A stretch of DNA of 64,000 nt, from assembly GCA_009782495.1 (NCBI GenBank), contig WRIX01000001.1:4583-68582 (forward strand), in the 5' to 3' direction. The stretch comes from Treponema sp. (GTDB lineage: Bacteria; Spirochaetota; Spirochaetia; Treponematales; Breznakiellaceae). A model generated the notes under the pieces. The model was not told where the DNA came from. It did no database searches and saw only the letters and a program-made list of their open reading frames with translations. Below, piece by piece: positions 1 through 58,215 of the stretch. A program made the translations under genes and the position numbers. Each line of letters begins with the position of its first letter. The first letter of the stretch is position 1.

Positions 1-78
1 CTAATATAAATTCTTTATATATACATATTAGGATCAATTTGTGAAATTCGTATCCATGACGTTAGGCAAAATGGGGCA

Positions 79-327
79 TTGACAAATGTTAATAAATGGT
101 TTATATTCCATACTTATGGAAAACATCATAAACCGCATATACATGCTGAATATGCAGGAGATGAAATTGCAATATCATTGGATGGTGAAGTTCTTGAAGG
201 ATCAATTCCAAAATCAAAGTTGAAATTAGTTGAAGCATGGATGGAAATTCATCGTGATGATTTAGAGGCAAATTGGAAATTACTTTCTAATGGTGAGCAA
301 TTCTTTAAAATAGAACCATTAAAATAG
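79..327 (+). CDS. DUF4160-family small protein
   Basis: 82-aa ORF. HHKPHIHAEY and LVEAWMEIHRDDLEANW fit my recollection of the DUF4160 signature. No in-frame ATG, so TTG start at 79. Lies in the AT-rich island. Confidence 0.65.
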   Translation: MTNVNKWFIFHTYGKHHKPHIHAEYAGDEIAISLDGEVLEGSIPKSKLKLVEAWMEIHRDDLEANWKLLSNGEQFFKIEPLK

Positions 328-340
328 GATGTAATAAATA

Positions 341-595
341 ATGTTGTGTCCCAAAATAATAAATGTAGAACCTCTTAAAGATTACAATTTAAAGTTAAGT
401 TATGAAACTGGTGAAATAAAATTATTTAATGTTTTACCATATATATCAGGTACATGGTATGAAGAATTACATAATAATAATTATTTTAAAACTGTTCATT
501 TGATTTCAGATGGGCATGGTATTGAATGGGAAAATGGTCAAGATATTGCTCCTCATGAATTATATGATATGAGTATAGTAATAGAAAATAAATAA
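341..595 (+). CDS. DUF2442-family small protein, usual partner of DUF4160
   Basis: 84-aa ORF 13 nt downstream of the previous gene. DYNLKLSYETGEIKLFNV and GIEWENGQDIAPHELY fit the DUF2442 pattern. Confidence 0.65.
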   Translation: MLCPKIINVEPLKDYNLKLSYETGEIKLFNVLPYISGTWYEELHNNNYFKTVHLISDGHGIEWENGQDIAPHELYDMSIVIENK

Positions 596-1027
596 AGTAT
601 AGAATATAAATGGTTTTTTACTTCGCCTAACGAGGTTGCAGAAAAAGCCTCAATGTCGCATAACAAATAGAAAAAGGATCGACACAGAACCACAAAAGAA
701 GTAAAATGACCTATTATGGCACGATTATACAAGATAGTGGCAAAGGGATAAAAGACAAATGAAATAGACTATTTGCGCAGTAATTATAAGAGCCTTTCGG
801 CGGCTAGGCTACACCTAAAACATTTTACGAAACACCACCACAAAGATTTATGAGAGCAGAACATAGCCAACGATGTAAAATTCATCGGAAATAATGGTTT
901 TTGAATTTTCTCCAGTATAATTATCTTCAAAAAACTCAAAAAAGAAGTACTTGCATCTTATTTTAGAATATAATATAAATATAATGTATCAAGTTGTTGG
1001 GGAAAGGGGCTTTTTTTGGCGAAAACT

Positions 1028-2299
1028 ATGGAAAAACAGTATATTTACATCGTTCAAGCACAGTTAGAACCATCAAAATGCAAAATTGGAAAAACAAACG
1101 ACTTAAATCGACGTCTAAAAGAATATAATAGTATAACAGGCAAATCCAAAGAAAATAAATACCAGTATTTATTCTCCTGTGAAGTAAAAAATATGTCTGA
1201 AGTTGAAAATGCTGTAAAAGAAAAGTTTTTTCACCTTAGAGAAGAAACAAGCAAAGAAATTTATTTTTATAATACCGTTCTGTTTAGAGATTATGTTAAT
1301 TTTTTGAAAACCCATAAAATGTTTATTAAAGAAACTTTTATTAAAACAGAAGAAAAAAAAGTCGTAACAAAAATCATAAAAAGAACAGCCCCAACACTTG
1401 AAGACAGGGGAGTAACAAAACGCGATATATTGCAAAAAGCACAAAGGGTAAACAATGACGAATTTTATACAAGATATGAAGATGTAGAAAATGAATTATC
1501 ATTGTATCCAATAAATATTTGGAAAAATAAAACTGTATTCTGCAATTGTGACGACGCTGTTGATGATGATGAAAGAAGTACATCCGCATTTTCTCTATAT
1601 TTTATACATCATTTTCAGCATCTTGGGTTAAAAAAATTAATATGCACACATTATAGCGGTGTAGTGGATTTATTTAATCAAGGTACTAAAGGTTATGTTT
1701 TTACAAAAACAGGTTATAAAGAATTAAAAGAATTTCCGGAAGGTTATGATGGAAGTTTTGAACATCCGTTATCACTAAAAATATTAAAAGAAGAAACGGA
1801 CATAGTATGTACTAATCCGCCATTTTCAAGAGCATCAGACTACTGGAAACTTACAATCGGAAGCGGGAAAAAATTTTTAATTATTTCTAATATAACAAAT
1901 GTTATCACAAAAGCATTTATCCCATATTTTTATAATAAAAAAGTTTGGGCTGGTTTTACTGAAGTAGATTGGTTTTTAACTCCCAAAAGAGAACTTACAC
2001 GAGCGGCAGGTTATTGGTTTACTAATTTTCCAATAAATAACAGACCAAAATATAAACAATTAAAAATTATTCCGCTAAAGGAAATCCCTGAAAAAAATAA
2101 AAAATTTGATGACGGGAAAATATTACTTGTTGATAATTGTTATATTCCAAGCGATTATAAAAAACCTTTTGCGGTTTCTACCCGACCTATATTAAATGGT
2201 TTATTGGAAAAAGGATATAGACTTATTGAAGATAAAGAATATTATCCTTATAAAAACGGTAAAAAATGTTTTGCCAGAGTTTTGGTACAGAAGGAATAA
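1028..2299 (+). CDS. Fusion protein: N-terminal T5orf172/GIY-YIG-like domain plus C-terminal EcoRI-family N6-adenine DNA methyltransferase
   Basis: ATG at 1028 (track ORF begins at TTG 1016). N-terminus: YIYIVQ...KIGKTNDLNRRLKEYN. C-terminus: NDEFYTRYEDVE, FCNCDD, LGLKKLI, and DIVCTNPPFS (motif IV NPPF). Confidence 0.75.
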   Translation: MEKQYIYIVQAQLEPSKCKIGKTNDLNRRLKEYNSITGKSKENKYQYLFSCEVKNMSEVENAVKEKFFHLREETSKEIYFYNTVLFRDYVNFLKTHKMFIKETFIKTEEKKVVTKIIKRTAPTLEDRGVTKRDILQKAQRVNNDEFYTRYEDVENELSLYPINIWKNKTVFCNCDDAVDDDERSTSAFSLYFIHHFQHLGLKKLICTHYSGVVDLFNQGTKGYVFTKTGYKELKEFPEGYDGSFEHPLSLKILKEETDIVCTNPPFSRASDYWKLTIGSGKKFLIISNITNVITKAFIPYFYNKKVWAGFTEVDWFLTPKRELTRAAGYWFTNFPINNRPKYKQLKIIPLKEIPEKNKKFDDGKILLVDNCYIPSDYKKPFAVSTRPILNGLLEKGYRLIEDKEYYPYKNGKKCFARVLVQKE

Positions 2300-2345
2300 T
2301 AAAAAGTATATTCAAAATTATAAAATAAATAATCGGAGGAAATTT

Positions 2346-3029
2346 ATGATAAATGTTACAAAAGATTGGAATAATAAACAGAAAAATTTAAAAGTATATC
2401 TGCTTAATCAAAAAACCTTTATTAAGGGTAAGAATTTATTATTGGAAATGCATAGTCTATTACATGATAAAAAAGTATATAATACTAGTATAGAAACAAT
2501 TTATGATAATTTATGGGATAATTTACAGGAAAAAACTTGTAAAATCATCTCAAACAAAGAAACATCAATAATATGGAATATATGGCATATTACCCGGATA
2601 GAGGACATCATCTCTAATATAATAATGGGGAATAAAGAAACAATATTCAATAAAGAAATTCAAGGAAAATTGAATATAAAAATAAAGGACACTGGAAATG
2701 CAATGGCATATTCTGATATAGAATTACTCAATAAAAATATAAACATAAAAGCTCTAAAAGAATATAGGGTTAAAGTTGGAAAATCTACTAGAAAGATAAT
2801 TGAATCTCTTGAATATAACGATATGAAAATAAAAGTGACAAAAGAACAACTAGAAAAAATAAAGCAAAACGGTGGTGTAACAAATGATTCAAAATCAATA
2901 TGGTTATTGGACTTTTGGGGAAGAAAGAATATATTTGGATTAATAATGATGCCGATAACAAGACATCAAACAGTGCATTTAAATGATAGTTTCAAAATAA
3001 AACAAAAGAACAATAACAGACTGCCTTAA
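2346..3029 (+). CDS. Hypothetical protein, weakly DinB-like
   Basis: ATG 2346 preceded by GGAGGA at 2335-2340. The track ORF from 2196 overlaps the previous gene. His-containing helices EMHSLLH, WHITRIED and TRHQTVH resemble a DinB-type metal triad, but the resemblance is weak. Confidence 0.5.
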   Translation: MINVTKDWNNKQKNLKVYLLNQKTFIKGKNLLLEMHSLLHDKKVYNTSIETIYDNLWDNLQEKTCKIISNKETSIIWNIWHITRIEDIISNIIMGNKETIFNKEIQGKLNIKIKDTGNAMAYSDIELLNKNINIKALKEYRVKVGKSTRKIIESLEYNDMKIKVTKEQLEKIKQNGGVTNDSKSIWLLDFWGRKNIFGLIMMPITRHQTVHLNDSFKIKQKNNNRLP

Positions 3030-3911
3030 TCAACCAAGCAATCCCATCTTATCCATTACAAGAACCGCCGCTGCTGTGCATGCTGTCTCGGTGCGGAGAG
3101 CCCGCTTTCCCAGTGAAAGCCGGAGAAAGCCTGCACTTTCAAGTTGTTCCCGTTCCCTGTTACTCCAGCCCCGTTCTGAACCAACTGCCAGGACTGCCTC
3201 TGTGTCTTTTTGGAACGGCTTCAATTCGGAAAAACTACCCCGGGGACTTACATTATCTGCTGCCAATAAAACAATATTTGGAGTAATTTTCGGTAACTTA
3301 TTTTCTAAAGACCCCTCATAAAGACACGGAGGTACGGAGGGATGCGGGTAATTTGAGAATTCAGTGTTACTCTTTGTGCCTTGGCGTCTTTGCAAGAGGT
3401 CTTTCTGCAACCAGGTATTCAGACTTGAATAAACTGCCAATTCGGGAAGCCGTGTATCACGGGCCTGGATTGCTCCTTCGACAAGGGCAGCGTGAGCGCC
3501 GCCGTCATCAAGCAGTTTTGTGTCCCTGTAACTTTTCTCTCCAAGTTCAGTTGCTATCAAATCTACAGCGGCCAAGCCCAGACTGGAGCAGTCCCGCAGC
3601 AAGCGCCGAAGCTGAATTGGTCTGGGGAATCCCACGCCGAGACGCAAGGGTGTTCTGGAAGGAGGATCCGTATCCAGATTAAGAACAGCACGTAATCCTG
3701 TAGCGGTAATTTCGCTTATTACGCCGTTTCCGGTTTTTCCGCCAAGTACACCGGCATCAAAACTACTGCCAACTGTTTTATGAAGCACTTTAAGCAGATG
3801 TACTGCCCGTTCATCGTGACGGGACAGAAAAACAGTAACTTCTGCACACTCAGCTTTTGCTGGGTATTCTTCAATGCAGAGTTCCGAATCGTTAAAGAGT
3901 ATCAGGTTCAC
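3030..3911 (-). CDS. rsmE: 16S rRNA (uracil1498-N3)-methyltransferase RsmE
   Basis: C-terminal VGSERGWSNREREQLESAGF...LGKRALRTETA is the RsmE signature. GTG at 3911 gives an MNLILF-type N-terminus and avoids overlap with the divergent gene. The track ORF extends to ATG 3968. Confidence 0.8.
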   Translation of the reverse strand: MNLILFNDSELCIEEYPAKAECAEVTVFLSRHDERAVHLLKVLHKTVGSSFDAGVLGGKTGNGVISEITATGLRAVLNLDTDPPSRTPLRLGVGFPRPIQLRRLLRDCSSLGLAAVDLIATELGEKSYRDTKLLDDGGAHAALVEGAIQARDTRLPELAVYSSLNTWLQKDLLQRRQGTKSNTEFSNYPHPSVPPCLYEGSLENKLPKITPNIVLLAADNVSPRGSFSELKPFQKDTEAVLAVGSERGWSNREREQLESAGFLRLSLGKRALRTETACTAAAVLVMDKMGLLG

Positions 3912-3947
3912 GTTATTGATCTGTGAATTTACCACAAGGGAAAAAAG

Positions 3948-5075
3948 ATGTATAGTAAGATAATGCAAAAGATCTACTCATTCTTTCTATTGATTTTTCC
4001 TTCTCTGTTCTCAGCTGTATTTATAATAATACTGCTGCTGCTTTTATCCGGTTGTTATACCCTTAAACAGGGAACAACAATGCTGGGATACCTGGGTAAA
4101 GCTGTACCGCTCGAAGAACTGGAAAAGACCAAGGGAAAAGAAAGTGAAGAAGCAGCTTTTGTAAAACAGGTAACAGACATACGCCGTTTTGCAATGGAAG
4201 AACTGGGATTAAAGGCAAGCAAAAACTATACCCGCTATGTTGAATTGGATCGCAATTATCTGGCAGCGGTGGTTTCCGCCTGTGCCGCAGATTCATTTAC
4301 ACGCCATGAATGGACTTTTCCCGTAGTAGGAACCGTACCGTACAAGGGATTTTTTAATCCAAAAGATGCACAGAAAGAAGCGTCAAAACTAAAAGCCGAA
4401 GGACTGGACGTGTGGATTAGACCGGTTGATGCTTTTAGTACATTGGGCTGGTTTAAAGATCCGCTCTATTCGTATATGAAGAATTATTCCGTTTATCAGC
4501 TTGCAGACCTAATCATCCATGAATTGTTTCATGCCACTGCTTTTGTTAAAGGCAGAGTAGAGTTTAACGAACAACTGGCCGAATTTGTCGGTACTCACGG
4601 CGCCCGGCTTTATATCATTAACCGCTTTGGAATTAATTCACCTGAATACTTATCAATAAGCGATGGGGAGGATGATTACAGGGTTTTTCGGGAATTCCTT
4701 TTTAAACTGGGTGCAGAACTGCAAAACCTTTATTCAAGAAATGATATCAAGAGAGAAGAAAAACTTATTCAAAAAGACTTAATCATTAAGACTGCACAGG
4801 AACGATTTGAAGCAGAATACAAAAGCCGTTTTCAGAGTGACAAGTACCGGGGTTTTTCAAAAATGCCGATTAACAACGCATATCTGGATTTGTACCGTCT
4901 TTACCATGAAGAAGATAACTTTTTTTCCGATCTGTATAAAAAAATTCCTATTGAGGACGATATGCAAAAACTGCAGGTTCTGATAACTGCAGCGGCAGCT
5001 CTTAATAAATCGCGGGAAGCCAGGAAAGATCCCCGTGCTGAATTACAAAAACAACTGCAATTCCATATAATGTAA
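3948..5075 (+). CDS. Predicted aminopeptidase lipoprotein (PF10023-like, HExxH)
   Basis: Lipobox LLLSGC. TRYVELDRNY, STLGWFKDP and IHELFHAT...FNEQLAEFVG match the predicted-aminopeptidase family. Confidence 0.8.
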   Translation: MYSKIMQKIYSFFLLIFPSLFSAVFIIILLLLLSGCYTLKQGTTMLGYLGKAVPLEELEKTKGKESEEAAFVKQVTDIRRFAMEELGLKASKNYTRYVELDRNYLAAVVSACAADSFTRHEWTFPVVGTVPYKGFFNPKDAQKEASKLKAEGLDVWIRPVDAFSTLGWFKDPLYSYMKNYSVYQLADLIIHELFHATAFVKGRVEFNEQLAEFVGTHGARLYIINRFGINSPEYLSISDGEDDYRVFREFLFKLGAELQNLYSRNDIKREEKLIQKDLIIKTAQERFEAEYKSRFQSDKYRGFSKMPINNAYLDLYRLYHEEDNFFSDLYKKIPIEDDMQKLQVLITAAAALNKSREARKDPRAELQKQLQFHIM

Positions 5076-5141
5076 GTTATTGATTTTTTTCAATATATAT
5101 TGTATAGCTTATATGTGAATAAAATTCTTTATGAAAAAATA

Positions 5142-6656
5142 ATGGAGGCCTTTTCTTCTGTTCTTCCCATTACCATAATTGTTCTGATAGCCAGTGTCGT
5201 TCTTACGCCCATGCCGTCAGGGACGATTCTGATGTTCCTGTTCGGCGCATTCCTTCTTATTCTTGGAATGGGTTTCTTTACCCTGGGAGCAGACATGGCC
5301 ATGATGCCTATGGGCGAAGGCATTGGCATTCAGCTTACCAAAAGTTCAAAAATTCTGATTATCATTATTGTTAGTTTTGTGATGGGCATAGTTATTACCA
5401 TTGCCGAACCGGATTTACAGGTATTGGCATTGCAGGTTCCCTCTATTCCGTCCAAAGTTCTGATTCTTACTGTTGCAACAGGAGTAGGGTTCTTCCTGGT
5501 TATTGCCGTTTTGCGATCTCTGCTAAAAATCCGGTTATCATATTTGCTGGTATTTTTTTATTTAATAACTTTTGGGTTGGCTTTTTTTGCCCTGGATGCA
5601 TTTGTTCCTGTAGCTTTTGATTCCGGCGGCGTTACTACCGGCCCGATTGCCGTTCCTTTTATTCTGGCAATGGGCGCGGGTATTGCATCGATCAGGAGCG
5701 ACAAAGACTCCAAAGACGATAGTTTTGGCATGGTTGCCTTGTGCAGCGTTGGACCCATTATGGCTGTGCTCCTTCTGGGTATTTTTTATAAACCCCAATC
5801 AGCAGAACTGGAAACTCATCGCATTGTTGAAGCAGCTACTTCCCGTGATGTATTTACGCATTTTGCCGTTGAACTGCCGGTTTTTCTTAAAGAAGTATCC
5901 ATTGCTTTGGCAGTTATTGTATTTTTCTTTATTGTACTCCAGCTGGTTTCCAGGCGCTTTAAGAAACATCAGCTTGGCCGTATTGCAGTAGGTTTTTTTT
6001 ACACACTGTTGGGTCTGGTAATTTTTTTAACCGGAGTTAACGTTGGTTTTATTCCTGTAGGACACCTTTTGGGTTTACAGCTTGCGGCTTCTCCGTTCAA
6101 GTGGATTTTGGTTCCCCTGGGAACATTGGTCGGCTATTTTATTGTAGCGGCAGAACCGGCGGTTCATGTACTCAACAAACAGGTAGAAGAAATATCTTCC
6201 GGCACTATTACCCAGAAAATCATGAACAGGGGATTAGCCATTGGAATGGCCGGGGCGCTGACAATTACCATGATTCGGATACTGCTGAGTATCCCCATAA
6301 TGTACATTTTAATCCCCGGTTATACTATCGCAATTGCCTTAACCTTTTTTGTACCCCGAATTTTTACCGGTATTGCCTTTGACTCCGGCGGTGTATGTTC
6401 CGGCCCCATGAGTACCACATTTCTGTTACCTCTGGCAATGGGAACTTCCGAAGGCGCAGGCAGAGATTTAATGATCGACGCATTCGGAATTGTAGCTATG
6501 GTTGCCATGACGCCCCTTATTGTTATTCAGCTAATGGGGCTGATATACCAAAGGAAACAAAAGAGTTCTGAAGAGCTATCCAGAGATGAATTGCTGGCTA
6601 TGGTTCATAAAGATACCAGGGTGATTGTTGTTTATAATTATGAGGAAAGAGTGTGA
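5142..6656 (+). CDS. DUF1538 family membrane protein (two repeats)
   Basis: Polytopic protein. FDSGGVTTGPIAVPFILAMG and FDSGGVCSGPMSTTFLLPLAMG are the repeated DUF1538 motif. First in-frame ATG is 5142; the track ORF starts at TTG 5100. Confidence 0.8.
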   Translation: MEAFSSVLPITIIVLIASVVLTPMPSGTILMFLFGAFLLILGMGFFTLGADMAMMPMGEGIGIQLTKSSKILIIIIVSFVMGIVITIAEPDLQVLALQVPSIPSKVLILTVATGVGFFLVIAVLRSLLKIRLSYLLVFFYLITFGLAFFALDAFVPVAFDSGGVTTGPIAVPFILAMGAGIASIRSDKDSKDDSFGMVALCSVGPIMAVLLLGIFYKPQSAELETHRIVEAATSRDVFTHFAVELPVFLKEVSIALAVIVFFFIVLQLVSRRFKKHQLGRIAVGFFYTLLGLVIFLTGVNVGFIPVGHLLGLQLAASPFKWILVPLGTLVGYFIVAAEPAVHVLNKQVEEISSGTITQKIMNRGLAIGMAGALTITMIRILLSIPIMYILIPGYTIAIALTFFVPRIFTGIAFDSGGVCSGPMSTTFLLPLAMGTSEGAGRDLMIDAFGIVAMVAMTPLIVIQLMGLIYQRKQKSSEELSRDELLAMVHKDTRVIVVYNYEERV

Positions 6657-6732
6657 GGTCCTTCAGCCTGCGGTTTGCGTCCCCCGAGCGCAAAGATATT
6701 ATTATAGTTCGCTGCCAGGAGGCAGCGTGTGC
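6657..6732 (+). repeat. Copy A of a ~70-nt two-hairpin repeat; it fills the whole DUF1538 / P-II-like intercistronic spacer
   Basis: AGCGCAAAGATATTATTATAGTTCGCTGCCAGGAGGCAGCGTGTGC followed by ATG at 6733. Near-identical cores occur at 17900-17965 and 57220-57303 (minus strand). Confidence 0.8.
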
Positions 6733-7575
6733 ATGAAGAAGAAAGAAGCTCCTCCGCCGAAAAAGGAAAAAACCAGCGCCTACAAAAAAATCCTGTTGGC
6801 GTTAAAGAAAAAAAAGGGAGAAGATCCCGGTCAAAAAAAAGACGATGAAACCGGCGGAATGCCCGCTACTCCAAATATGCCGGTTCTTGATTGTATTTTT
6901 TTTATTCTGGACAGATCAAAATCAAAACATATTTCGGAAATTATGGACGATTCCCATGTCCGCTTTCATTTTGTCTGCCAGGGCAGGGGTACTGCCAGCT
7001 CGGAAGTACTCGATCTTTTGGGAATAGGTTTCAGCGAGAAAGCTGTTGTTATATGCCTGGAACAAAACCTTATGGTGCCAATACTCATTAAGCGGGTAAG
7101 TAAAAGTCTGGGGCTCAACAATCCCGGAGCGGGGATTGCCTTTACCGTACCGCTTTCGGGGATCAATAAGCCTATACTTCAGGTGTTCAAAGACAGCATC
7201 CATAAGAATATCAGTGATGAAGAAAAGAAAGAAACCAGGGATGGAAAGGATACCAAAATGAATCAGAAAAAGCATGATCTTATCGTAGTTGTAACAAACC
7301 AGGGTTATAGCGATGAATTAATGGCCTGTGCCAAAGAAGCCGGCGCTTCCGGCGGCACGGTTATTAACGCCAGAGGGCTGATTCACCAGGGGCCGGTTAA
7401 GGTTTTTGGAGTTACAGTGCAGGAAGAGAAAGAAATTATTTTAATCCTGACAAACCGGAGCAAACAGGTACCTATTATGCAGGCAGTAAGCCAAAAATTC
7501 GGCCTGGCATCCGAGGCCCGGAGCATTGTATTCAGCCTCCCGGCGGAAAATATTACCGGTTTAGACCTGGATTAG
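6733..7575 (+). CDS. P-II-like (nitrogen regulatory protein P-II family) protein with a Lys/Pro-rich N-terminal extension
   Basis: ATG 6733 after AGGAGG. GASGGTVINARG and the DUF1538 neighbourhood are typical of this family. The sequence appears to contain two P-II-like halves. Confidence 0.65.
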   Translation: MKKKEAPPPKKEKTSAYKKILLALKKKKGEDPGQKKDDETGGMPATPNMPVLDCIFFILDRSKSKHISEIMDDSHVRFHFVCQGRGTASSEVLDLLGIGFSEKAVVICLEQNLMVPILIKRVSKSLGLNNPGAGIAFTVPLSGINKPILQVFKDSIHKNISDEEKKETRDGKDTKMNQKKHDLIVVVTNQGYSDELMACAKEAGASGGTVINARGLIHQGPVKVFGVTVQEEKEIILILTNRSKQVPIMQAVSQKFGLASEARSIVFSLPAENITGLDLD

Positions 7576-7654
7576 CCGCAAAAAGCTAATTTTTTAATAA
7601 AAACCCTTGTTTTTTTGCCAATAGTCTTGCATAGTTACTATTGGAGGAACAATA

Positions 7655-8128
7655 ATGAAAAAAAATGTTATCTATGGTTTACTCATTATTACCTTAAGCA
7701 TCCTGGTATTTGCCGCCTGCGGCGGAACGCCTACTCCAAAACCCGAGCCGGCGGCTAAATCGACGCCTGAAACACCGCCGCCTGCGACAGGTGTTGGAAA
7801 TTCAATCCTGGATCTTACAGGTGCAACAAATTACACGGTTGTTCAGGGCGATACTCTTTCTGAAATTGCTGCAAGAAAGTATGGCGGGTCGAATATGTAT
7901 TTCTTCCCCCTTATCAGGCTTGCCAATGAGGAAGCTGTTCCAAATCCCGATGAGATTGAAGTGGGTACTGTTCTTGTTATCCCCGAGCTTTCCCGGAATT
8001 TGGATAACCCGGGAGCTAATGGATTGATGCGGGTAGATATGCTTAGAGCTGCAGATCAGTATGATAGGCAAGGCAAACCTGCTGCTGCTCAAGAACTAAG
8101 AAACCTGGCTACAAGGCTCTCTCGGTAG
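7655..8128 (+). CDS. LysM domain lipoprotein
   Basis: Signal peptide with lipobox FAACGG. LysM motif YTVVQGDTLSEIAARKYG. Confidence 0.8.
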   Translation: MKKNVIYGLLIITLSILVFAACGGTPTPKPEPAAKSTPETPPPATGVGNSILDLTGATNYTVVQGDTLSEIAARKYGGSNMYFFPLIRLANEEAVPNPDEIEVGTVLVIPELSRNLDNPGANGLMRVDMLRAADQYDRQGKPAAAQELRNLATRLSR

Positions 8129-17392: not shown

Positions 17393-19222
17393 ATGGAGAT
17401 ACTTTCCGGTATAGCTGCTGTACCAGGCATTGCAATTGGCAAGGCTTTTCTGTACGCAGAAGACCTAGAAACTCCCCGCTATATCATTCCACAGGAACAA
17501 AGCCCGGAAGAGATGAAGCGCTTTATAAGGGCAGTGGAGGAAGTGGCGGCAGAACTGCGTACTCTGCGGGAAAAAGCCAAAACCAGGGAGCAGGACGGCA
17601 TTTTTGCCGCTCATCTTTTAATGGTGGAAGACCAGGACTTCCACTACAAAGTTAAGGCCCGGTTTGAAACAAACTACGAAAACATCGAATGGGTTGTTTC
17701 CGAAGTAGCCCGGGAGCTTTCCCGCAAACTCATAGAGTCTCCGAATGAATACCTTAGGGAACGAACCGCTGATGTGGTTGATGTTTCCAGGCGCATAATA
17801 AGAAACCTTTTGGGTATTAAACGTTTTTCCCTTGCTGATTTACAGGAAGAAGTAATTCTTGTTGCCAGGGATCTTCTTCCTTCAGAGGTTCTTGCAATAC
17901 GTCCCTTCGGGCCGCGAGCGCAAGGAAATTATTATAATTCACCGCCGGAAGGCGGTGTGTGCATAAACAAAGACAAGGTTCAAGCGGTCCTGTTGGATGC
18001 CGGTTCCCGGACGAATCATGCAGCAATACTTCTCCGTTCCTTCGGCATCCCGGGAGTATTCGGCCTTTCTTCGGCAACCCAGGAAATTACAAACGGCAGC
18101 CTGATTATTGTTGATGGCGGAACAGGACAGGTATTTATAGAACCCGACAATGAAACAGCCAGACGGTATAAAGAACAACTTGCTAAACAGGAACAGCCGG
18201 CTGTAAACCTTTCTGCCCTTAAAGATTTTCCCGCAGAAACCACCGACAGCCGCCGGGTAAGTCTTGTGGCCAATATTGAACTTCCCGAAGAAGCTGAAGA
18301 AATTGCACATTACGGCGCCGAAGGAATAGGCCTTTATCGTTCGGAATTTTTGTTTCTTCAAAACGGACGAAATTCGGAAGAAGAACAACTGGAAGCCTAT
18401 AGCAGAGTTGTCAAAGCGATGAACGGAAAACCTGTTACAATTCGTACCGTAGACCTTGGGGGAGAAAAGGCATTACCGGCCATAGCAAATGAAAACGAAA
18501 AGAATCCTCTTATGGGCTGGAGGGCTATACGGTTTTCCCTGTCTCTGCCGGATCTGTTTAAGACACAATTGCGTGCAATATTGCGTGCCAGCATTCACGG
18601 AAAAGTGCAGATAATGTTTCCCATGATCTCAAATATCGAAGAACTGGAGCAGGCGCTTTGTTTACTGGAAGAAGCTCGAACGGAATGCCGCAAAAAGAAT
18701 CAGGATTTTGCAGATGATATTAAAATTGGAACGATGATCGAAATTCCTTCGGCAGTAATGACCGCTGATATTCTGGCTAAAAAATCAGACTTTTTTTCTA
18801 TTGGTACAAACGACCTGATCCAGTACACCCTGGCGGTAGATCAGGAAAACGAAAGAGTACGACATCTGGCAAAGGGAACTCAAATTGCCGTTCTTAGGCT
18901 TATCAAGCAAACAATTGATGCCGCTCACGCTGCAGGGATACATGCGGCGATGTGCGGAGAAATGGCGGGAGATCCCGCAGCAGCTGCGTTACTGCTTGGT
19001 CTTGGATTGGATGAATTCAGCATGAACGCCTCCGCCATTCCCCAGGTAAAATATATTATACGCAATGTCAGTATTGAATCCTGCAAGGCTCTGGCAGAAG
19101 CAGCACTGACCAGCACTTCACACAAGCAGGTACAGGAGCTGATACGGGATTGGTACAACAAATATTTACCAAGCCTTACTCTTGCTTCTGATATGATTTT
19201 TGAAACACAGGCTCAAACATGA
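17393..19222 (+). CDS. ptsI: Phosphoenolpyruvate-protein phosphotransferase (PTS enzyme I)
   Basis: MEILSGIAAVPGIAIGKAF N-terminus, DAGSRTNHAAIL active-site His region, GIGLYRSEFLF, SIGTNDLIQY. ATG 17393; the track ORF starts at 17267. Confidence 0.93.
   Translation: MEILSGIAAVPGIAIGKAFLYAEDLETPRYIIPQEQSPEEMKRFIRAVEEVAAELRTLREKAKTREQDGIFAAHLLMVEDQDFHYKVKARFETNYENIEWVVSEVARELSRKLIESPNEYLRERTADVVDVSRRIIRNLLGIKRFSLADLQEEVILVARDLLPSEVLAIRPFGPRAQGNYYNSPPEGGVCINKDKVQAVLLDAGSRTNHAAILLRSFGIPGVFGLSSATQEITNGSLIIVDGGTGQVFIEPDNETARRYKEQLAKQEQPAVNLSALKDFPAETTDSRRVSLVANIELPEEAEEIAHYGAEGIGLYRSEFLFLQNGRNSEEEQLEAYSRVVKAMNGKPVTIRTVDLGGEKALPAIANENEKNPLMGWRAIRFSLSLPDLFKTQLRAILRASIHGKVQIMFPMISNIEELEQALCLLEEARTECRKKNQDFADDIKIGTMIEIPSAVMTADILAKKSDFFSIGTNDLIQYTLAVDQENERVRHLAKGTQIAVLRLIKQTIDAAHAAGIHAAMCGEMAGDPAAAALLLGLGLDEFSMNASAIPQVKYIIRNVSIESCKALAEAALTSTSHKQVQELIRDWYNKYLPSLTLASDMIFETQAQT
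17900..17965 (+). repeat. Copy B of the two-hairpin repeat, inserted in frame (22 codons) in ptsI
   Basis: CGTCCCTTCGGGCCGCGAGCGCAAGGAAATTATTATAATTCACCGCCGGAAGGCGGTGTGTGCATA. It encodes RPFGPRAQGNYYNSPPEGGVCI, which has no counterpart in my recollection of E. coli EI just upstream of the active-site His. Confidence 0.75.
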
Positions 19223-24682: not shown

Positions 24683-24823
24683 GGAATATCCAGAGGGGAA
24701 CCTTCACTCACTTCCGTTCGTTCGGTGGAATATCCAGAGGGGAACCTTCACTCACTTCCGTTCGTTCGGTGGAATATCCAGAGGGGAACCTTCACTCACT
24801 TCCGTTCGTTCGGTGGAATATCC
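24683..24823. repeat. 44-bp tandem repeat, 3 perfect copies plus a 9-nt partial copy
   Basis: Unit GGAATATCCAGAGGGGAACCTTCACTCACTTCCGTTCGTTCGGT begins at 24683, 24727 and 24771, with a partial copy at 24815. It overlaps the last codons and the stop of the minus-strand trpB2-like gene. Confidence 0.95.
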
Positions 24824-27690: not shown

Positions 27691-30600
27691 CTATTTATCG
27701 GTAGATTCAGGCAATAACACTAATTCTACCGGCCCTCCTGTAAGTAATTCTGCTGTCAGAATGCTAAGTTCTGCCGCTGTTACCGAGCTGTAAAGACCGG
27801 GTCGTTCTGCCAGATGGGACAAGGGTGTACTGGTAATAACGGTAAAATTCGCCAGATTCCGTGCTACAAATCCGTTGTTTTCCATCCCCCGTTCAAAGCT
27901 CTTAACAAGCGCTTCCCGGGATTTGGCAAGAGTTTCTTCATCTGCCGCTCGTGACAGGAATGCGAGTTGTTCTTTTACCGCTTTCCTGAGTTCTTCCTGC
28001 CGCCCGGGATCGCAGATAAAGTAGATTTCCAGAGACAGCTCCCCGACAGGCGCCGGACTAAAAGATGCTCCGGCATAAATAGAATATACCCCGCCCAATT
28101 TTTCACGTATCTCGTCTGTTAAGACAATGTCCAGATAATCATTCAGTACCAGAACAGCAGCATTATCCGCTTCGGTCCAGGTTTTGGAAACAAAATAGCC
28201 CATGTAAACAATGCATTTTTCTTCCTTTCCTTTATATATGATTTTTTCGGTCATCCCGGGCCGCTGTATATTCGGATTAGTCCAGCTGTTCCATCGCGGC
28301 AGGCCGTTATTCGGAATGGCAGCCAAATACATTTCTGTCAGTTCCTGAAGTTCTTCCCTGTCCCCCAGACTGCCTGCAAGAACAAGTGTAAAATCTGCAG
28401 GATTCAGAGCCAGATTTAAAAAGGCCAGGGCTGCTTTTTCGCTTACAGAATCCAAATCCGCAAGTTCCAGGGGCATAAACAACGGATGATTGGAATACAT
28501 CAGCCGGGACAGTTCTTTAGAGAAGAATATTTCCGGACTGTCTCCTTCCTGGAGCAGTCTGGTTCTGTGATAATCCAGTACCAAAGCCAGTCCGTTTTGA
28601 TCGATACGAGGCTGGGTAAACGAACCGTAAAGCAATTGAAATAAATAAGGAAGATCCTTTAACGAGGATGATCCCCGAAGACCGCGTGTATGTGTACCGG
28701 TCCAGAACGACAGTGAAAGCTGTTTATCGGAAAGGAAGTCCATCAATTCCGGTTTGGAAAGGGCTGCAAGGCCGGAAGCGCTTTGTATTTCAGCGGCTAA
28801 TTTCGCGGAATGAAGCGCCTCTTCCTGCGAAAAGTCAAATCCGTCAAGTATTGCTTCGCCGTCCGGGAGTACGGCGCTTACCGTACCGCCGCGGGCCAGA
28901 GCATAAAAATCCAATTCGTTATTTTTATTGGCGGTAGCAACAAGGATAAGTCGCATTCCGTTGCTTAATTCCCAGACCTCTGCTCCCGATTCATCTTTAC
29001 TAACGCTGATAATTGAACCGGGTACGGCAACTTCGCTTAAAAAACCGGAAACAACAACTCGTTCTTTCGGCGGTGTTATATCAGCATCACGGCTTTCTTT
29101 GACCATGCTGATAATGGCTGCTTCGTTGGGAAGTTTTGCAGCTTCAGTTTCCGGGGCTGTGATAATTGCCAGGAGATCATCTTCTGCATAATACGATCGT
29201 ACTGTCGAGTTAATCATTCCCAGCCTGATGCCCGGAAGGAGCTGTTTTACCGCATAGAGTTCCCATTCCGGGTCCAATGCATACTGTTCACGCAAAAAAT
29301 CGGCAGTCAGTTCATTAAGGTATTGTTCCGATTCCCGTCTGTCTTTTTCGGCGGCTATCCTTTCCATATCGGAAAGAAGCGCTCCTTTGGCCCTTTCCAG
29401 CTCTGAACGGGTAAAGCCGTAACGAAGAAGACGTTCTTTTTCCAAAAGTAACGCTTCCAGTGTTTCGCCGCTGCGCCCTGCTTTCGCATTTGCAGCCATA
29501 ATATAGTACCGGGAACTTTGCCCGTAGCGGCTGTTCCAGGAACCGGCTGCCATATAGGGAGTATCTCCGGCGGAAATATTTTCTTCATAACGGAAATCCA
29601 GCATCATTTCTATCAGGTAATCGATTAAAGATTCGCGGTATGCTTCGAGGGTTGCCGATCTGGCCTGGGGACTGCGTTTGTAGTAGAGGTATACAGTCGA
29701 ATCGGGCAGTTCTTCGTCATCCAGCATCATTTCTATCAGGTAATCGATTAAAGATTCGCGGTATGCTTCGAGGGTTGCCGATCTGGCCTGGGGACTGCGT
29801 TTGTAGTAGAGGTATACAGTCGAATCGGGCAGTTCTTCGTCTGTAACTACGGCAGTAACAATCGCTCCCTTTTCCGGATCGGGCAGTTCAAAGTACGGCC
29901 GGGAAAGGGGAGTCTCCGGAACCGGGGCGCTGAAATGAGCGGCCAATTCCTTTTCCAGAACTTCTCCGTTAAAATCACCCACAAGGATTACAGCCATGTT
30001 ATCCGGTCTGTACCAGTGTTGATAAAAACCAATAAGCCTTTCTGCCGGGGCATCCTGGATTATTTCCGGCAGTCCGATTGGAAGACGGTCTGCAAAGCGG
30101 GAACCGCGGAAGATCAATGGCAGGATTTGCCGCCTTATCCTTTCCCGGGCGCCAAGACGGGTACGGTATTCTTCCATTATAACGGAACGTTCTTTGTCTA
30201 CATCATCGGGATTAAAAGTAACGGCCCAGGTCCAGTCGTCAATAATGGCAAGAGCACGCTCAGGTATGCGTTTTATGCCATTTTCGTCCTGTTCAACAGG
30301 AGTTTCTATGCCGTAAACCGTTTCTTCAAAACCCGTATATGCATTTATCTCCGGGCCAAAACGCATTCCCAGGGAACGGAGGTAATTAATCAGTTCCGCT
30401 CCGGGAAAACGCCGTGTTCCGTTAAAAGCCATGTGTTCAACAAAATGGGCAAGCCCCTGTTCATCGTCATTTTCCAGGATGGAGCCGGCATTAACTGCCA
30501 CGGTAAGGTAAGCCCGGCCTCCCGGAAGTGAGTTTTCCAGTATGTAGTAACGCAATCCATTGTCCAGGGTTCCCGTTCGCAGTGTCGCCCAGGCAGGGAG

Positions 30601-39025: not shown

Positions 39026-39054
39026 TATTTATGTAAATAAAACTTTAATTTAGC

Positions 39055-39234
39055 GAACTGAACACATCAATCTTTCCATATCGGTGGGGGGAAGAACACC
39101 CATTCAGACCATGGCGGTCGAGGCTGTCGTCGACGCACACTTTGGTGTGGCATCTTCTTCACCTCGCCGAATGGTCTTCATGGCTAACCTTCCCCCCACC
39201 TATGTGGCAACATTATCCCCGATGTGTTCAGTTC
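39055..39234. repeat. Structured element 1: 180-nt near-continuous hairpin with 14-nt terminal inverted repeats
   Basis: GAACTGAACACATC (39055-39068) pairs with GATGTGTTCAGTTC (39221-39234). GGTGGGGGGAAG (39083-39094) pairs with CTTCCCCCCACC (39189-39200). Further pairs are AGACCAT/ATGGTCT, CGAGG/CCTCG and an apical CACAC/GTGTG. No plausible ORF. Confidence 0.8.
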
Positions 39235-39425
39235 AGCAGAGATAAAATTATTGTGCCCCTAACTGCGCTCCCGTGCACTGGCTGTGGGCAGCGCTTTAAT
39301 TACCTATCAAAAAAGTACTGCATCTAAGTGTTTTCAGCCCTTTTCCAGCATTATTTCGGCTCATGGTATGACAGATGCTTAGCAGCAAATTACCGTTTAC
39401 ATCCATCGGAAAAACCTTAACGTAA

Positions 39426-39703
39426 CGAACTGAACATATCGAATTTTATGTTACAACATAGGTAGGTGGTTGCTTATGAAGCATATACGTGAACATGCTT
39501 GCCCCACAGGAGGGGAAGCCTGACCTGACGGGGACTTTCGGCGTGCAACAACAGCAGCCATGCCAAAGCATGCGTAAACGGCAGCCACGACCGGCGTCCC
39601 CGCTCAGGGCAGATTCCCCTTTATGTGGGGTAAAATGGTTCGGAATGTGCTTCATTGATAACCTTTATCTTTACGGTATAGGAAACTTGATGCGTTCAGT
39701 TCG
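39426..39703. repeat. Structured element 2: 278-nt paralog of element 1 with the same termini
   Basis: GAACTGAACATATC (39427-39440) pairs with GATGCGTTCAGTTC (39689-39702). Inner stems are CCCCACA/TGTGGGG, AGGGGAA/TTCCCCT and GGGGAC/GTCCCC. It shares the TTCCCC..TATGTGG segment with element 1. Confidence 0.8.
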
Positions 39704-39736
39704 GTAAATTGTGGTTTTTATTCGCATTGCAAAACC

Positions 39737-39763
39737 TTAACTTGATAAACCGGATGCCGATAA
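39737..39763 (+). promoter_or_regulatory. Sigma-28 (FliA)-type promoter
   Basis: TTAA, 15-nt spacer, GCCGATAA (39756-39763), against the consensus TAAA-N15-GCCGATAA. About 16 nt upstream of the next ORF. Confidence 0.55.
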
Positions 39764-39778
39764 TAAAATGAGGATAAT

Positions 39779-40162
39779 GTGATGAGAATATCGGGTGTTA
39801 CAGCGTTTCCAAACCTTGGTTATGCCTTTTCTAGCTCCAGTTCGGGCAGGATGTCCCTTCCTGTTAATCCGGGCAGCTATATTTACTCACAATTTAAGCA
39901 TGTTGGCGGCGTTCCTGCTCCGGAAGGAACCAATGGAGTAGCTGTTACCAAGCTAAAAATCCTCGATGTACTGATTGAGCAGCTGCACCAGATAAAAAAA
40001 CAGCCCACGCTTAATACAAAAGACCTTTCCAACGAACAAATTGATGCGTTGATCAGCAAATATGAAGGCCAAATCAAGGCTGCCACGGCTGCCAACAACG
40101 TAATGCCCTATACTCCCGCCCCCCAGGTTCCCGCAGGTATGCTTTTCGACATTTCTGCATAA
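39779..40162 (+). CDS. Hypothetical protein (possible sigma-28 regulon member)
   Basis: 127-aa ORF starting at GTG 39779 or ATG 39782, preceded by GAGGA. No recognised domain. Confidence 0.5.
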   Translation: MMRISGVTAFPNLGYAFSSSSSGRMSLPVNPGSYIYSQFKHVGGVPAPEGTNGVAVTKLKILDVLIEQLHQIKKQPTLNTKDLSNEQIDALISKYEGQIKAATAANNVMPYTPAPQVPAGMLFDISA

Positions 40163-54879: not shown

Positions 54880-57219
54880 CTACTTTGATGTTGCTTTCCA
54901 GAAACCCTGCCATTCGGAAGGATTTTCCAGATAATACCGGCATTGTTCGATATAGTATTTTGGAGGAGCATCCCTGTCTTTCAGCTTTTCGAACAAGGCA
55001 AGCGCTTTGGTAAAATCTCCGGTGTAAAAAGTATCTCTGGCTGAATCGAATTCACGGATTATACTTTCTTTTTCCCGGTACACTGCTTCTGTCAGAGGTT
55101 CCCAAACCGTTACCGGTTCATTTTTTCCGACTACTGTAACCTGAGCCAGGCTGCGTCCGTAGAATTTTCCGTAGTTGTTTGCTTCGTTCATGGTATGCCC
55201 GGTACACATCAATAAAGTGCCGAACTGTTTATTAAGCCCTTCCAGCCGGGCCGCAAGGTTTACCGAATCTCCCAGCACGGTATAGTTAAAATGCCCTTCC
55301 GAACCAAAGTTTCCCACTACCGCATATCCTGTGTTTAACCCAATGCGTGTCAGCATACGTTTATTAATTCCCGAAGCATTTATATTCCATTTATTAAACA
55401 AATCTTCAAAATGTCCGGCTTTTTCCACAAGCCGTGTTTGACATTCAATGGCTGCACCCAGCGCTCTGGACGCATGATCCTCCATGTGAACAGGAGCATT
55501 CCAGAAAGCGATAATCGCATCCCCTTCGTATTTGTCTATGGTTCCTCCCGAATCCTGAATTATATCGGTAAGGAAGGTTAAATATTCGTTCAATAATTCT
55601 TTAAGCTGATCGGGGTCGAGGTTTTCGGAAATAGTCGTAAAACCCTGAACATCGGAAAAGAATATACTTATTTCTGCACGTTCGCCCCCAAGCTTTAATT
55701 GATCGGGGTTGCTGATTAACTGTTCTATATAAATGGGACTTAAATACTGGCTGAATGCGGATTTGATAAAACGCCTTTGACTGCCTTCGGTTGCATAGTT
55801 ATAAACGGTGCAGGTAAGGAAAGAAACAAAAAGACCTGCCAGCGGCAGAACCATAGGGAACCACAGACAAAAAGTGTTGTATGCAATAAAAGCTCCTCCA
55901 ATAATCAGCGAAGCAATAAGAACCAGACCGCCAACGGAAAATTGCAGTTTGTCGCAAAACAAGGCCAGCGCTGTGGTTGCAAGAATAATCATAAAGAGAA
56001 CAACCATGTCCAGCCAAACAGGGGCTTCCCGTATAAAATCGTTGTTAAGAATATTGTCCAGCATGGTAATGTGGACACCCATACCGGGATAAACTGTTTC
56101 AAGAGGATTGGCGCATATATCAAAAAGTCCCGGTGCATAAAACCCAAAAAAAACATACTTATCCGTAAAATCTCCGGGGAACAAAACCGGTTCCTGTCCG
56201 TTTGCCACAGCTTCCGCACTGCTTAAAACATCAGCTGCACTGTAAGGCATATAGCGATTAAGGCTGCCCCTGTAACGAAGTATGCTTTTTCCATCATTGT
56301 CCACAGGGATTATATAGTCGTCCCATTCTATCTGCCGCTTTTTTTCATTAAAATAGACATTGCTGCCGGCCCCCGAAACCAGCAGGGATGCGGCGGAAAG
56401 TCCCGGTACAGCGTTACCGTCAAAATTAATAAAAAGCCTTGCCCTTCGATTAATGCCGTCAAAGTCTTCCGAGTTGGTTACATTTCCCAATGCTCCGGCT
56501 GTAACAGTAAGACCCGGTATGGGAAACTGTGCGCCCAGCCGTCCGTCAGTTTCATTACTCAAGGTATAATGTTCGATTACGGAACTAAAACCTTCGGGAT
56601 GTAACAATGGTTTATTTATATCCGCCGGCCAGGTAACGGAGCTTCCCGTCTGTGTGCTGAAAAATACTGTTTGCACCGTTTTGCCGTAGTTTTTTTGCGC
56701 CTCAATAAAGACATTGTCGTCGGCACGATCCGAAAGACTCCGCAAAGCTGTCACGGCAGTTAAGTATTTTGCAAAAAAACTGCGCTGTTCTTCGCCGGGA
56801 ACAGCGGTCTGAACCGCAGTAATGTTTTCGCCTATCTCTTCCATAGCGTGAACTGCGGTATCAATAATGGCATCCTGGTTGGCATTCCGGTAAATTGAAG
56901 GTTCGGAAAAAAGAACGTCAAAGACTATGGATTTGGCGCCTCCCATATTCATGTAATCCACAATATCCGCATACGCTTTACGCGGCCACGGCCAGCCCCA
57001 GCCATGTTCCCGGTTGGCCCAGTCTATACTGGGTTGATCCAGCAATATTACAACAATGTCGTCAGACGGCTTATAGGTATCGGCAAAGAGCTTAACCCTG
57101 AAATCGTATGCCTTGTATTCAAGAGCATCAAAGATGTGAAGAAAATGCAGAGCGCCAAGTCCAATAAACACCAGTACAACAATAATAACGGCGGTAATTA
57201 TTTTTTTATTTTTTGCCAT
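54880..57219 (-). CDS. CHASE2 sensor domain adenylate/guanylate cyclase (class III)
   Basis: N-terminal transmembrane segment, large extracytoplasmic domain, three transmembrane segments. Cyclase motifs ISIFFSDVQGFTTISE, KYEGDAIIAFW, RIGLNTGYAVVGNFGS. True ATG is 57219; the track starts at TTG 57225. Confidence 0.88.
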   Translation of the reverse strand: MAKNKKIITAVIIVVLVFIGLGALHFLHIFDALEYKAYDFRVKLFADTYKPSDDIVVILLDQPSIDWANREHGWGWPWPRKAYADIVDYMNMGGAKSIVFDVLFSEPSIYRNANQDAIIDTAVHAMEEIGENITAVQTAVPGEEQRSFFAKYLTAVTALRSLSDRADDNVFIEAQKNYGKTVQTVFFSTQTGSSVTWPADINKPLLHPEGFSSVIEHYTLSNETDGRLGAQFPIPGLTVTAGALGNVTNSEDFDGINRRARLFINFDGNAVPGLSAASLLVSGAGSNVYFNEKKRQIEWDDYIIPVDNDGKSILRYRGSLNRYMPYSAADVLSSAEAVANGQEPVLFPGDFTDKYVFFGFYAPGLFDICANPLETVYPGMGVHITMLDNILNNDFIREAPVWLDMVVLFMIILATTALALFCDKLQFSVGGLVLIASLIIGGAFIAYNTFCLWFPMVLPLAGLFVSFLTCTVYNYATEGSQRRFIKSAFSQYLSPIYIEQLISNPDQLKLGGERAEISIFFSDVQGFTTISENLDPDQLKELLNEYLTFLTDIIQDSGGTIDKYEGDAIIAFWNAPVHMEDHASRALGAAIECQTRLVEKAGHFEDLFNKWNINASGINKRMLTRIGLNTGYAVVGNFGSEGHFNYTVLGDSVNLAARLEGLNKQFGTLLMCTGHTMNEANNYGKFYGRSLAQVTVVGKNEPVTVWEPLTEAVYREKESIIREFDSARDTFYTGDFTKALALFEKLKDRDAPPKYYIEQCRYYLENPSEWQGFWKATSK

Positions 57220-57303
57220 GTACAACGCTGCCTCCTGGCAGTGAATCAGAATAATTTCCCTGCGCTTGCGGGCCGCAGGCCCGCACCATCTCCCTGAAAT
57301 CCC
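57220..57303 (-). repeat. Copy C of the two-hairpin repeat; it fills the M48 / cyclase intercistronic spacer
   Basis: Minus strand: TGCGGGCC-TGC-GGCCCGCA, then AGCGCAGGGAAATTATTCTGATTCACTGCCAGGAGGCAGCGTTGTAC, then ATG. Confidence 0.8.
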
Positions 57304-58215
57304 CTAGATTACAGCGCCGAACCGCTTGGTCCTGTACGAGCGTGTATCCTCAACATTGTACTTTTTGAGGTTTTTATTAACAGCGGTAATTCTTTCTGCA
57401 GGGGAGGGATGAGTTTTTCCAAAGCCTGCAGTTTTATTATTACCCTGTTTTTGTTTTAAAGACTCAAGCATTTCCAGAATTCCCGAAGGCTGGTAGCCCG
57501 CTGTAGCAAGCATGGAAAGAGCAGTTTCATCGGCTTCCAGTTCCTGACTTTTGGAAAAGCCATTAACTACCATAGTGGTAATTATTTCATTTACCGAATC
57601 ACCCATTATACTGGTTAATTCCGCTACATTACCGCCGGCGGCTTCTCCAATACCTGCCAATGCTCCCGAAACCGCAGCGTTGACATACCGTGCATTACGG
57701 ATGGATGTAAGTGCGTGCTGCAGCTGAATATGAGCTATTTCGTGGGCAATAACCGCAGCCAGAGCATCTTCGGCCGATGCACAGGCAATAAGTCCGCGGG
57801 TAACAAAGATATGTCCGCCGGGCGTGGCGAACGCATTGATTTCTTCGGTGTCAAGTACAGCCACATGATACCCATTGTAGATATCCGGCCTTGGAGAATT
57901 GATTACTATGGCAGAACAGATCTTGTTCAGATAAGTTTGAAGAGCCGGATTCCTGTATATTTTATATGTGCTTGCAATATTGGCTGCCACAGCACGGCCC
58001 AGATAGTATTCGTTTTCCGGGGTTAAAGAATCTGCAGCTTTTTTGGCTTCGGCAAATGTCGCTATACCTTTTCCGACTGCTTTTATGACCTGGGCTTGTT
58101 CATCACTGGCGCCCGCAGCCTGGGCAATACCTCCGGCTATATCCCCCATTGACTCACAGGTAAGGAGGCTGAATGAAACAAGTACGGCCAATAAAAAGTA
58201 AATTATCTTTTTCAT
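57304..58215 (-). CDS. M48-family zinc metalloprotease lipoprotein
   Basis: Lipobox LLTCES. HEIAHIQLQH is the HExxH motif. Confidence 0.85.
   Translation of the reverse strand: MKKIIYFLLAVLVSFSLLTCESMGDIAGGIAQAAGASDEQAQVIKAVGKGIATFAEAKKAADSLTPENEYYLGRAVAANIASTYKIYRNPALQTYLNKICSAIVINSPRPDIYNGYHVAVLDTEEINAFATPGGHIFVTRGLIACASAEDALAAVIAHEIAHIQLQHALTSIRNARYVNAAVSGALAGIGEAAGGNVAELTSIMGDSVNEIITTMVVNGFSKSQELEADETALSMLATAGYQPSGILEMLESLKQKQGNNKTAGFGKTHPSPAERITAVNKNLKKYNVEDTRSYRTKRFGAVI

Follow-up and report, generated by a model that had tools for sequence, protein, structure and literature searches.

Mycobacterial interspersed repetitive units (MIRU) were described by Supply et al. (1997; summarised in PMC12548453 and PMC3184786) as mobile units that are inserted at start codons and contain an internal ORF coupled at -4. 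Rickettsia palindromic elements (RPE) are palindrome-containing repeats that lie in frame in unrelated housekeeping genes, where they add a peptide and the reading frame is kept (Ogata et al. 2000, as given in PMC10969869). No mechanism for the spread of MIRU-, RPE- or REP2-type repeats is given in PMC3184786, PMC12548453 or PMC10969869. The window (the whole stretch of Treponema DNA analysed here, 64,000 nt) contains three related segments, copies A, B and C (Table 1). A first-pass annotation described them as two-hairpin repeats that could be either mobile, REP/RPE-like elements or a module for translational control or RNA processing. The three segments belong to an interspersed repeat with insertion polymorphism, ATG-like flanks, placement at start codons and two covarying hairpins. 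The whole is best explained if they are copies of a small, non-autonomous interspersed repeat, mobile now or recently, in a clade of termite-gut Treponema, a reading given a probability of roughly 0.75. No report of a Treponema element of this type was found in the literature, and the repeat appears to be a sequence family undescribed so far.

The three near-identical cores are present in the window as they had been quoted, and covariance-model, shuffle and repeat-pairing statistics exclude chance. A covariance model (R1) built from 17 units matches the three copies at 74.8-85.4 bits (E 1e-16 to 1e-18), and nothing else in the window exceeds 12 bits. The 26-nt core with at most three mismatches has an expectation of 0.00 in shuffles of the window and is found at copies B and C; copy A has more than three mismatches to the core pattern. 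A repeat search of the window pairs copies A and C, and copies B and C, over 53-55 nt at 80-81% identity. The extent first assigned to copy A (6657-6732) was too narrow, since the unit with both flanking triplets runs from 6653 to 6735. Copy A lies between a DUF1538 gene and the next gene and makes up the entire spacer; the upstream stop TGA overlaps the first 4 nt of the unit, and the 3' ATG opens a 280-aa ORF. Orthologous filled sites are found at loci L013 and L039. The AGGAGG that had been placed half in the loop and half in the stem, about 10 nt from the ATG, is seen at 6717-6722 in this copy. Copy C has an M48 peptidase gene (57304-58215) upstream and a CHASE2 cyclase gene (54880-57219) downstream. 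The claim that the element is the whole spacer holds for copy A and fails for copy C, which is separated from the upstream stop by 17 nt. Copy B, left unplaced earlier, falls within a gene rather than between genes: it interrupts the coding sequence of ptsI, in frame and by exactly 66 nt.

Table 1. Positions of the three repeat copies and their parts in the window
Feature	Position	Strand	Description
Copy A	6653-6735	+	Unit of the 80-nt subfamily including flanking triplets GTG...ATG; covariance model 74.8 bits
Copy A, hairpin 1	6655-6685	+	Long nested form, outer stem partly decayed; alignment A2
Copy A, conserved box GAGCGCAAAG and A/T-rich stretch	6686-6709	+	Invariant or nearly invariant columns of A2
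Copy A, hairpin 2	6710-6727	+	CGCTGCC/GGCAGCG; AGGAGG at 6717-6722, half loop and half stem
Copy A, tail TGTGC and ATG	6728-6735	+	ATG is the start of the downstream gene (6733-7575)
Copy B	17897-17965	+	63-nt unit between ATA...ATA, in ptsI (17393-19222); covariance model 85.4 bits
Copy B, hairpin 2	17940-17957	+	CACCGCC/GGCGGTG; loop weakened to GGAAGG; 3' triplet ATA, not ATG
Copy C	57217-57286	-	67-nt unit, triplets GTG...ATG; covariance model 78.2 bits
Copy C, hairpin 2	57226-57243	-	CACTGCC/GGCAGCG, one A.C mismatch; AGGAGG at 57236-57231
Copy C, hairpin 1	57267-57285	-	TGCGGGCC tgc GGCCCGCA; read from sequence and alignment

The unit is ~63 nt long (range 62-80) and has a 66-nt period with ATG-like flanking triplets. 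First comes a GC hairpin of variable sequence (hairpin 1), followed by the box GAGCGCAAGG and a stretch rich in A/T; then comes hairpin 2, also of GC type, whose purine-rich loop resembles a Shine-Dalgarno (SD) sequence, and last the tail GTGTGC. The consensus of alignment A2 reads ATG / A GGGCC ttc GGCCC T CGAGCGCAAGGAAATTATTATAGTT CGCCGC (c)AGGAG(g) GCGGCG TGTGC / ATG. The sequence of hairpin 1 varies from copy to copy. The copy-specific GC hairpin that had been placed ahead of the core corresponds to hairpin 1 in copies B and C; copy A does have the TTTGCG/CGCAAA stem named for it, but this stem is not homologous to that hairpin. Copy A belongs to an 80-nt subfamily in which hairpin 1 is longer and nested, with an outer stem GAGGG/CCCTC that is partly decayed in the window copy, where two pairs are broken relative to L013 and L034. 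The TTTGCG/CGCAAA stem together with the A/T-rich stretch is the sole terminator-like match and is peculiar to copy A. Consensus scans of the units found no convincing terminator and, for sigma-70, no promoter.

Both hairpins covary. In the alignment 92.8% of cells are paired and 8 of 14 pairs have double changes; pair 7/35 is A-U nine times, C-G six times and U-A once, and pair 64/75 is C-G 12 times and U-A five times. None of 500 shuffles matched the observed pairing or covariation score, slid alignments were 35-53% paired, and RNAalifold independently recovered the same two hairpins. The compensatory changes in hairpin 2 that had been noticed between copies A and B are real and extend across the whole family, and the covariation supports selection on the stem, proposed from those changes, for both hairpins. 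Single-sequence folding z-scores are unremarkable (-0.6 to -1.6). RNAalifold also pairs GCGCA with U.GUGC in a third helix that is 98.8% paired and almost invariant; this helix (GCGCA/UGUGC) is unproven. Mismatches of the G.U and A.C types occur in the stems at about equal frequency, which makes action of the stems as RNA or as DNA indistinguishable. Two other readings of the hairpins were rejected. Hairpin 1 has perfect palindromic stems with 3-nt loops and no C(UNCG)G closure, which excludes a UNCG tetraloop, and an integron attC site would have a single long, imperfect hairpin and a GTTRRRY core, where the unit has two distinct hairpins and no such core.

The family comprises ~16 independent loci with ~25 units, found by covariance-model searches and scans, and all come from termite-gut Treponema assemblies. 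When one genome per species (185,579 species) was scanned with an 18-base pattern, true copies were confined to one MAG, Treponema sp. Nt197P3bin20 (WRIB01, termite gut); 24 further pattern matches had neither hairpins nor tail and were rejected as copies. A metagenome scan found copies only in the termite-gut samples Ga0082212 and JGI24704J35079. The window sequence is 99-100% identical to ENA termite-gut assemblies and ~82-94% identical to the WRIB01 MAG. Viral contigs scanned with the core pattern gave no match, the window has no Rfam match at the gathering threshold, and a profile of the 45-aa frame-0 peptide of two units found nothing in a collection of 5.8 billion proteins. A lack of further copies or unsupported stems, which the first-pass annotation took to speak against its element, was not encountered; ~16 loci were found and the stems covary.

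Insertion polymorphism was recovered at two sites, both filled in the window and empty in a sister genome that is ~90% identical. At ptsI the filled site reads gca ATA (63 nt) ATA aac; its empty counterpart is gca TTT aac in L050 and, in L051, gct ATT aac. The insertion has lengthened ptsI in frame by exactly 66 nt, or 22 codons, and left one codon in duplicate; this copy is identical in L045 and L046. The resulting 22-residue insert in PtsI is peculiar to the window strain: neither the WRIB01 orthologue (92% identical) nor any other aligned homologue has it. It breaks the alignment to Escherichia coli EI between residues 169 and 171 and, as mapped by sequence to that protein, lies 19 residues before the active-site histidine. 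An AlphaFold model of PtsI with the insert (9-sequence alignment) had a mean pLDDT of 48.6 and was unusable for structure. The second site is the spacer between the M48 and cyclase genes, which in WRIB01 (L052) is 25 nt long and contains no unit. In a third strain (L053) the same spacer contains a unit that is itself interrupted by a second, inverted one. The nested unit (5097-5164 of L053, minus strand) is inserted within the GAGCGCAAGG box, between the flanks TGG...AAG, which are not a clean repeat, and its loop (TAAAC) has no SD. The junction at the copy C locus is blurred by small indels, and a clean 3-nt duplication is found only at ptsI. A third empty site was sought by comparing L021 with the window, where synteny breaks before the site.

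Units also recur in unrelated surroundings. L013 and L034 have exactly the same 83-nt unit between flanks that agree at only 20 of 60 and 15 of 60 positions, demonstrating that the boundaries of the unit are sharp. L002 contains a tandem array of three 65-nt units. The arrays at L036 and L038 begin with a 5'-truncated unit that is followed by full units with differing hairpin 1; because hairpin 1 differs among the units, these arrays are not simple duplications. The L036 array (2557-2732, minus strand) has one 5'-truncated and two full units and extends up to the start codon of a gene for a membrane protein or lipoprotein. Judged by eye, this array lies directly downstream of a tRNA-like sequence. 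The mobile, REP/RPE-like reading of the first-pass annotation gains support from the presence/absence polymorphism, the identical units in unrelated flanks, the arrays, the nested copy and the in-frame ptsI copy.

The direct repeats that flank the units comprise at least ATG at most loci and range from 0 to 8 nt. At 7 of 12 loci the repeat is 5-8 nt, (T)GCATG, which is the 3' end of the element itself, and this match would explain tandem stacking. Mismatched flanking triplets include a 5' GTG in copies A and C and a 5' ATA in L021/L042. The orientation of the unit relative to the ATG-like triplet is always the same. The family was rejected as a classical MITE because terminal inverted repeats are lacking: apart from the palindromic CATG the ends, ATGAGGGCC... 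and ...GTGTGCATG, have nothing in common, and each hairpin is self-contained. A target-site duplication of the kind seen in classical MITEs is clean (3 nt) at ptsI and amounts to 0-8 nt elsewhere. No transposase or other mobilising gene was found near the units, and tblastn with an IS200-type TnpA query gave nothing below E = 3 in 332 kb of Treponema DNA. The GC skew of the window was unusable for detecting a replication-strand bias.

An ORF of at least 108 aa begins at the 3' ATG in 14 of 16 loci. ATG being the preferred triplet, almost every surviving copy is placed exactly on a start codon. Gene-adjacent units are all in sense orientation, and the copy in ptsI is the only intragenic one (1 of ~16 loci). 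The downstream products are functionally unrelated and include an ABC ATPase, an FmdB-type zinc ribbon protein, a bactofilin-like protein, lipoproteins, an aldo/keto reductase, RsmE, a cyclase and a kinase. Three loci (that of copy A, L034 and L035) have the TGA of the upstream gene overlapping the 5' ATG, in the form ATGA. The frame of the flanking triplets is open through the 66-nt units (ptsI, L006, L021, L021b, L030 and L037). The 65- and 80-nt units, whose period is 2 mod 3, instead contain a mini-ORF of 22-27 codons that runs from the 5' ATG to a TGA overlapping the 3' ATG, and every mini-ORF of this class ends in this way. The period-2-mod-3 class occupies 3 of 3 loci with the ATGA overlap versus 1 of 12 others (Fisher's test by hand, p ~0.009), a count in which two of the three ATGA loci share the same 80-nt variant and the independent sample is small.

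The purine-rich loop is kept in every unit that abuts a start codon and is lost only in L033 (TAAA, where the 3' ATG opens 17 codons) and in the inverted nested unit. The translational-control reading of the first-pass annotation is compatible with this pattern as a second layer, since the two units that have lost the loop do not abut a start codon. The SD of the unit is partly inside a 6-7-bp GC stem and lies 10 nt from the ATG, a distance that was 5-7 nt in native genes when the window was crudely surveyed; given this spacing and partial burial, it may be a weak site. Use of the loop in translation is a prediction. In several units (the outer stem of copy A, L052b, L036u1 and L038u1) the 5' half has decayed or been lost in place and the 3' half is intact. 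Mechanical ORF calls that begin at start codons further upstream run through units (window 6625-7575, ...PRAQRYYYSSLPGGSVCM; L034 3519-4868; L021 1643-2395, ...PRAQGNCFISPQGGGVCM) and yield false N-terminal extensions. Units of this family lead to wrong start calls and apparent N-terminal extensions that could mislead annotation. At a more distant relative (L054, 2640-2675) the native RBS region of the cyclase orthologue (ATTATCCGCCGGGAGGCaattaaATG) resembles the 3' half of the unit. This likeness may hint that the unit originated from an ordinary 5' leader, or that a decayed copy is present there.

These patterns suggest how a mobile repeat could settle on start codons at little cost. The unit is found beside an ATG-like triplet, in fixed orientation, with the same triplet on its other side. 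The unit would bring an A/U-rich leader, an SD and an ATG to the downstream gene, and its first base, A, would restore the upstream TGA where the genes had overlapped as ATGA. Units of 66 nt would be read as a 22-residue extension or, as in ptsI, as an in-frame insert. In the 65- and 80-nt units the mini-ORF from the old start to the TGA on the new ATG (AUGA) would relay translational coupling. The interrupted gene is probably still translatable. After insertion the 5' half (hairpin 1 and the box) would decay or be truncated, and the 3' half would be retained as the RBS of the gene. Since the hairpins covary between subfamilies yet decay in resident copies, they are most likely mobilisation signals rather than host regulation.

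Three routes of insertion may be considered. A true 3-nt duplication with a preference for GCATG would fit the ptsI copy best. A single-strand, HUH-type enzyme that inserts the unit 3' of a tail-like motif would fit three features: an orientation that is fixed, ends that have no terminal inverted repeats, and direct repeats that vary in length. An RNA-mediated route is left open by the 5'-truncated units. A bolder proposal is that the family represents a new mechanism among bacterial repeats, in which a start-codon-like (TGC)ATG is read in fixed orientation and the element is a translation-neutral parasite of start codons that rebuilds stop, SD and start and relays coupling; this proposal is unlikely and is offered as speculation. 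The candidates for such a mechanism would be an HUH-type or other single-strand enzyme that recognises two unlike hairpins, and an RNA/cDNA route, which the 5'-truncated units at the head of arrays suggest. If the proposal is true, the repeat would be a compact and tractable model for the movement of MIRU- and RPE-type repeats.

The features that place the unit at genes could also be those of a host cis-regulatory leader or regulon module, as proposed for Neisseria REP2, that was spread by recombination or gene conversion and whose hairpins bind or sense in the mRNA. Gene-adjacent units are always in sense, directly ahead of a start codon, both hairpins covary, and the possible third helix, with an invariant G.U pair and two wobble-only changes, would enclose the RBS. 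However, a regulon is hard to reconcile with the unrelated functions of the downstream genes and with the lack of the unit at the same genes in close relatives. Copies occur within a coding region and inverted inside another copy, stems have decayed in situ at orthologous copies (hairpin 2 in copy C and L053, hairpin 1 in copy A), and two units searched against Rfam have no family match even at E <=1. The cis-regulatory explanation is accordingly held to be quite unlikely.

The layout of a hairpin, a single-stranded A/U-rich linker and a second hairpin, with no terminator T-run and no promoter, might alternatively be that of an intercistronic module for RNA processing or stability. A nuclease would cut the transcript in the linker, with hairpin 1 as a 3' protector of the upstream part and hairpin 2 as a 5' protector of the downstream part, uncoupling expression within the operon in the manner of REP/BIME and ERIC. 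Such an effect is established for other repeat families (reviewed in PMC3184786), and several units do lie between co-oriented genes. Many others are not intercistronic, though: L036 follows a tRNA-like sequence, and there is no ORF close upstream of L030, L037, L021b and L038. Units can dispense with hairpin 1 in situ, and a processing module leaves the ATG flanks, the frame properties and the ptsI copy unexplained, all of which makes it very improbable. An artefact of assembly or binning, or chance similarity, might be suspected because every sequence used is a metagenome-derived assembly, but it can practically be dismissed, since the same units and loci are present in the independent assemblies ERZ27257320, ERZ27257305 and ERZ27257299 (ENA), JGI 3300002505, JGI Ga0082212 and the NCBI MAG GCA_009782955.1, the ptsI copies of L045 and L046 agree exactly, and the covariance-model E-values of the units are 1e-13 to 1e-21.

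The mobile-repeat reading makes the Treponema family an unusually small and sharply bounded case for the question of how small repeats spread with little harm. A few closely related genomes between them provide sites with and without the unit, units in tandem, one unit nested in another and one inserted in frame. One element would display two modes of harmlessness, the in-frame read-through form and the coupling mini-ORF, and in addition bring its own RBS. If it is shown to work, the 3' half could be used as a portable RBS cassette for spirochaete genetics. Other repeated sequences are present in the window. Positions 39026-39780 are ORF-poor over ~750 nt and contain two long hairpin-like segments (~39056-39234 and ~39427-39702) with inverted GAACTGAACA...TGTTCAGTTC arms; no Rfam family matches this region at the gathering threshold, and it could represent either a structured RNA or another family of MITE-like repeats. 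A perfect tandem duplication (2 x 123 nt) lies at 29596-29841 and a perfect 44-nt tandem repeat (3.2 copies) at 24683-24823. The GC content is 0.38 in positions 1-8000 and 0.43-0.46 in the remainder of the window.

Among described repeats, REP/BIME elements have a conserved GTAG tetranucleotide at the hairpin foot and are associated with a RAYT gene; alignment A2 shows no conserved GTAG, and no RAYT was found in 332 kb with the IS200 TnpA query. PATE have subterminal hairpins identical to those of an IS200/IS605 element resident in the genome. The IS200/IS605-derived PATE and the REP/RAYT systems resemble the Treponema unit in having no terminal inverted repeats, a hairpin near each end and a fixed orientation to a short, non-palindromic target. 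In addition, the left flank of the unit resembles the 3' end of the element, a likeness that insertion 3' of a target motif, as opposed to a true duplication, would be expected to produce. However, the two Treponema hairpins differ from each other, the sequence of hairpin 1 is free to vary, the search near the units revealed no Y1 (HUH) transposase, and the ptsI copy, with ATA on both sides, fits duplication more simply.

Neisseria REP2 and Borrelia IR-A/IR-B (PMC3184786) share with the Treponema unit the lack of terminal inverted repeats and the presence of two internal stem-loops, and the host of IR-A/IR-B is likewise a spirochaete. REP2 differs in its length of 120-150 bp, in carrying a promoter and in marking a co-regulated gene set (PMC3184786). 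No promoter-like site was found in the Treponema unit by consensus scan, and it is the Treponema units that show insertion polymorphism, tandem arrays and an intragenic copy. The likeness to RPE is found at a single locus (1 of ~16), ptsI, where the copy adds 22 aa in frame. RPE are longer (~100-150 bp) and nearly half of them lie inside ORFs, whereas the Treponema unit is intragenic at 1 of ~16 loci. RPE have no reported association with start codons or with a Shine-Dalgarno sequence, their Rickettsia host is unrelated, and a sequence relationship is not expected.

MIRU are units of 40-100 bp that occur singly or in tandem within operons, and the Treponema unit has a period of 65-80 nt, forms arrays of two or three and lies in sense orientation. 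Both are inserted at start codons, with short direct repeats at filled sites and internal GC-rich inverted repeats. The internal ORF of MIRU that overlaps the neighbouring stop and start (-4) has its counterpart at the copy A locus, L034 and L035, though not in the 66-nt units. The Treponema unit differs in having its own SD-like loop, a 66-nt in-frame form and one copy in a coding region. The hosts belong to unrelated phyla, there is no reason to expect homology of sequence, and the likeness is that of a functional analogue by description. The Treponema unit is filed under no named family; it behaves like known small repeats and is a single ~63-nt element in which MIRU-, RPE- and REP2-like behaviours are combined.
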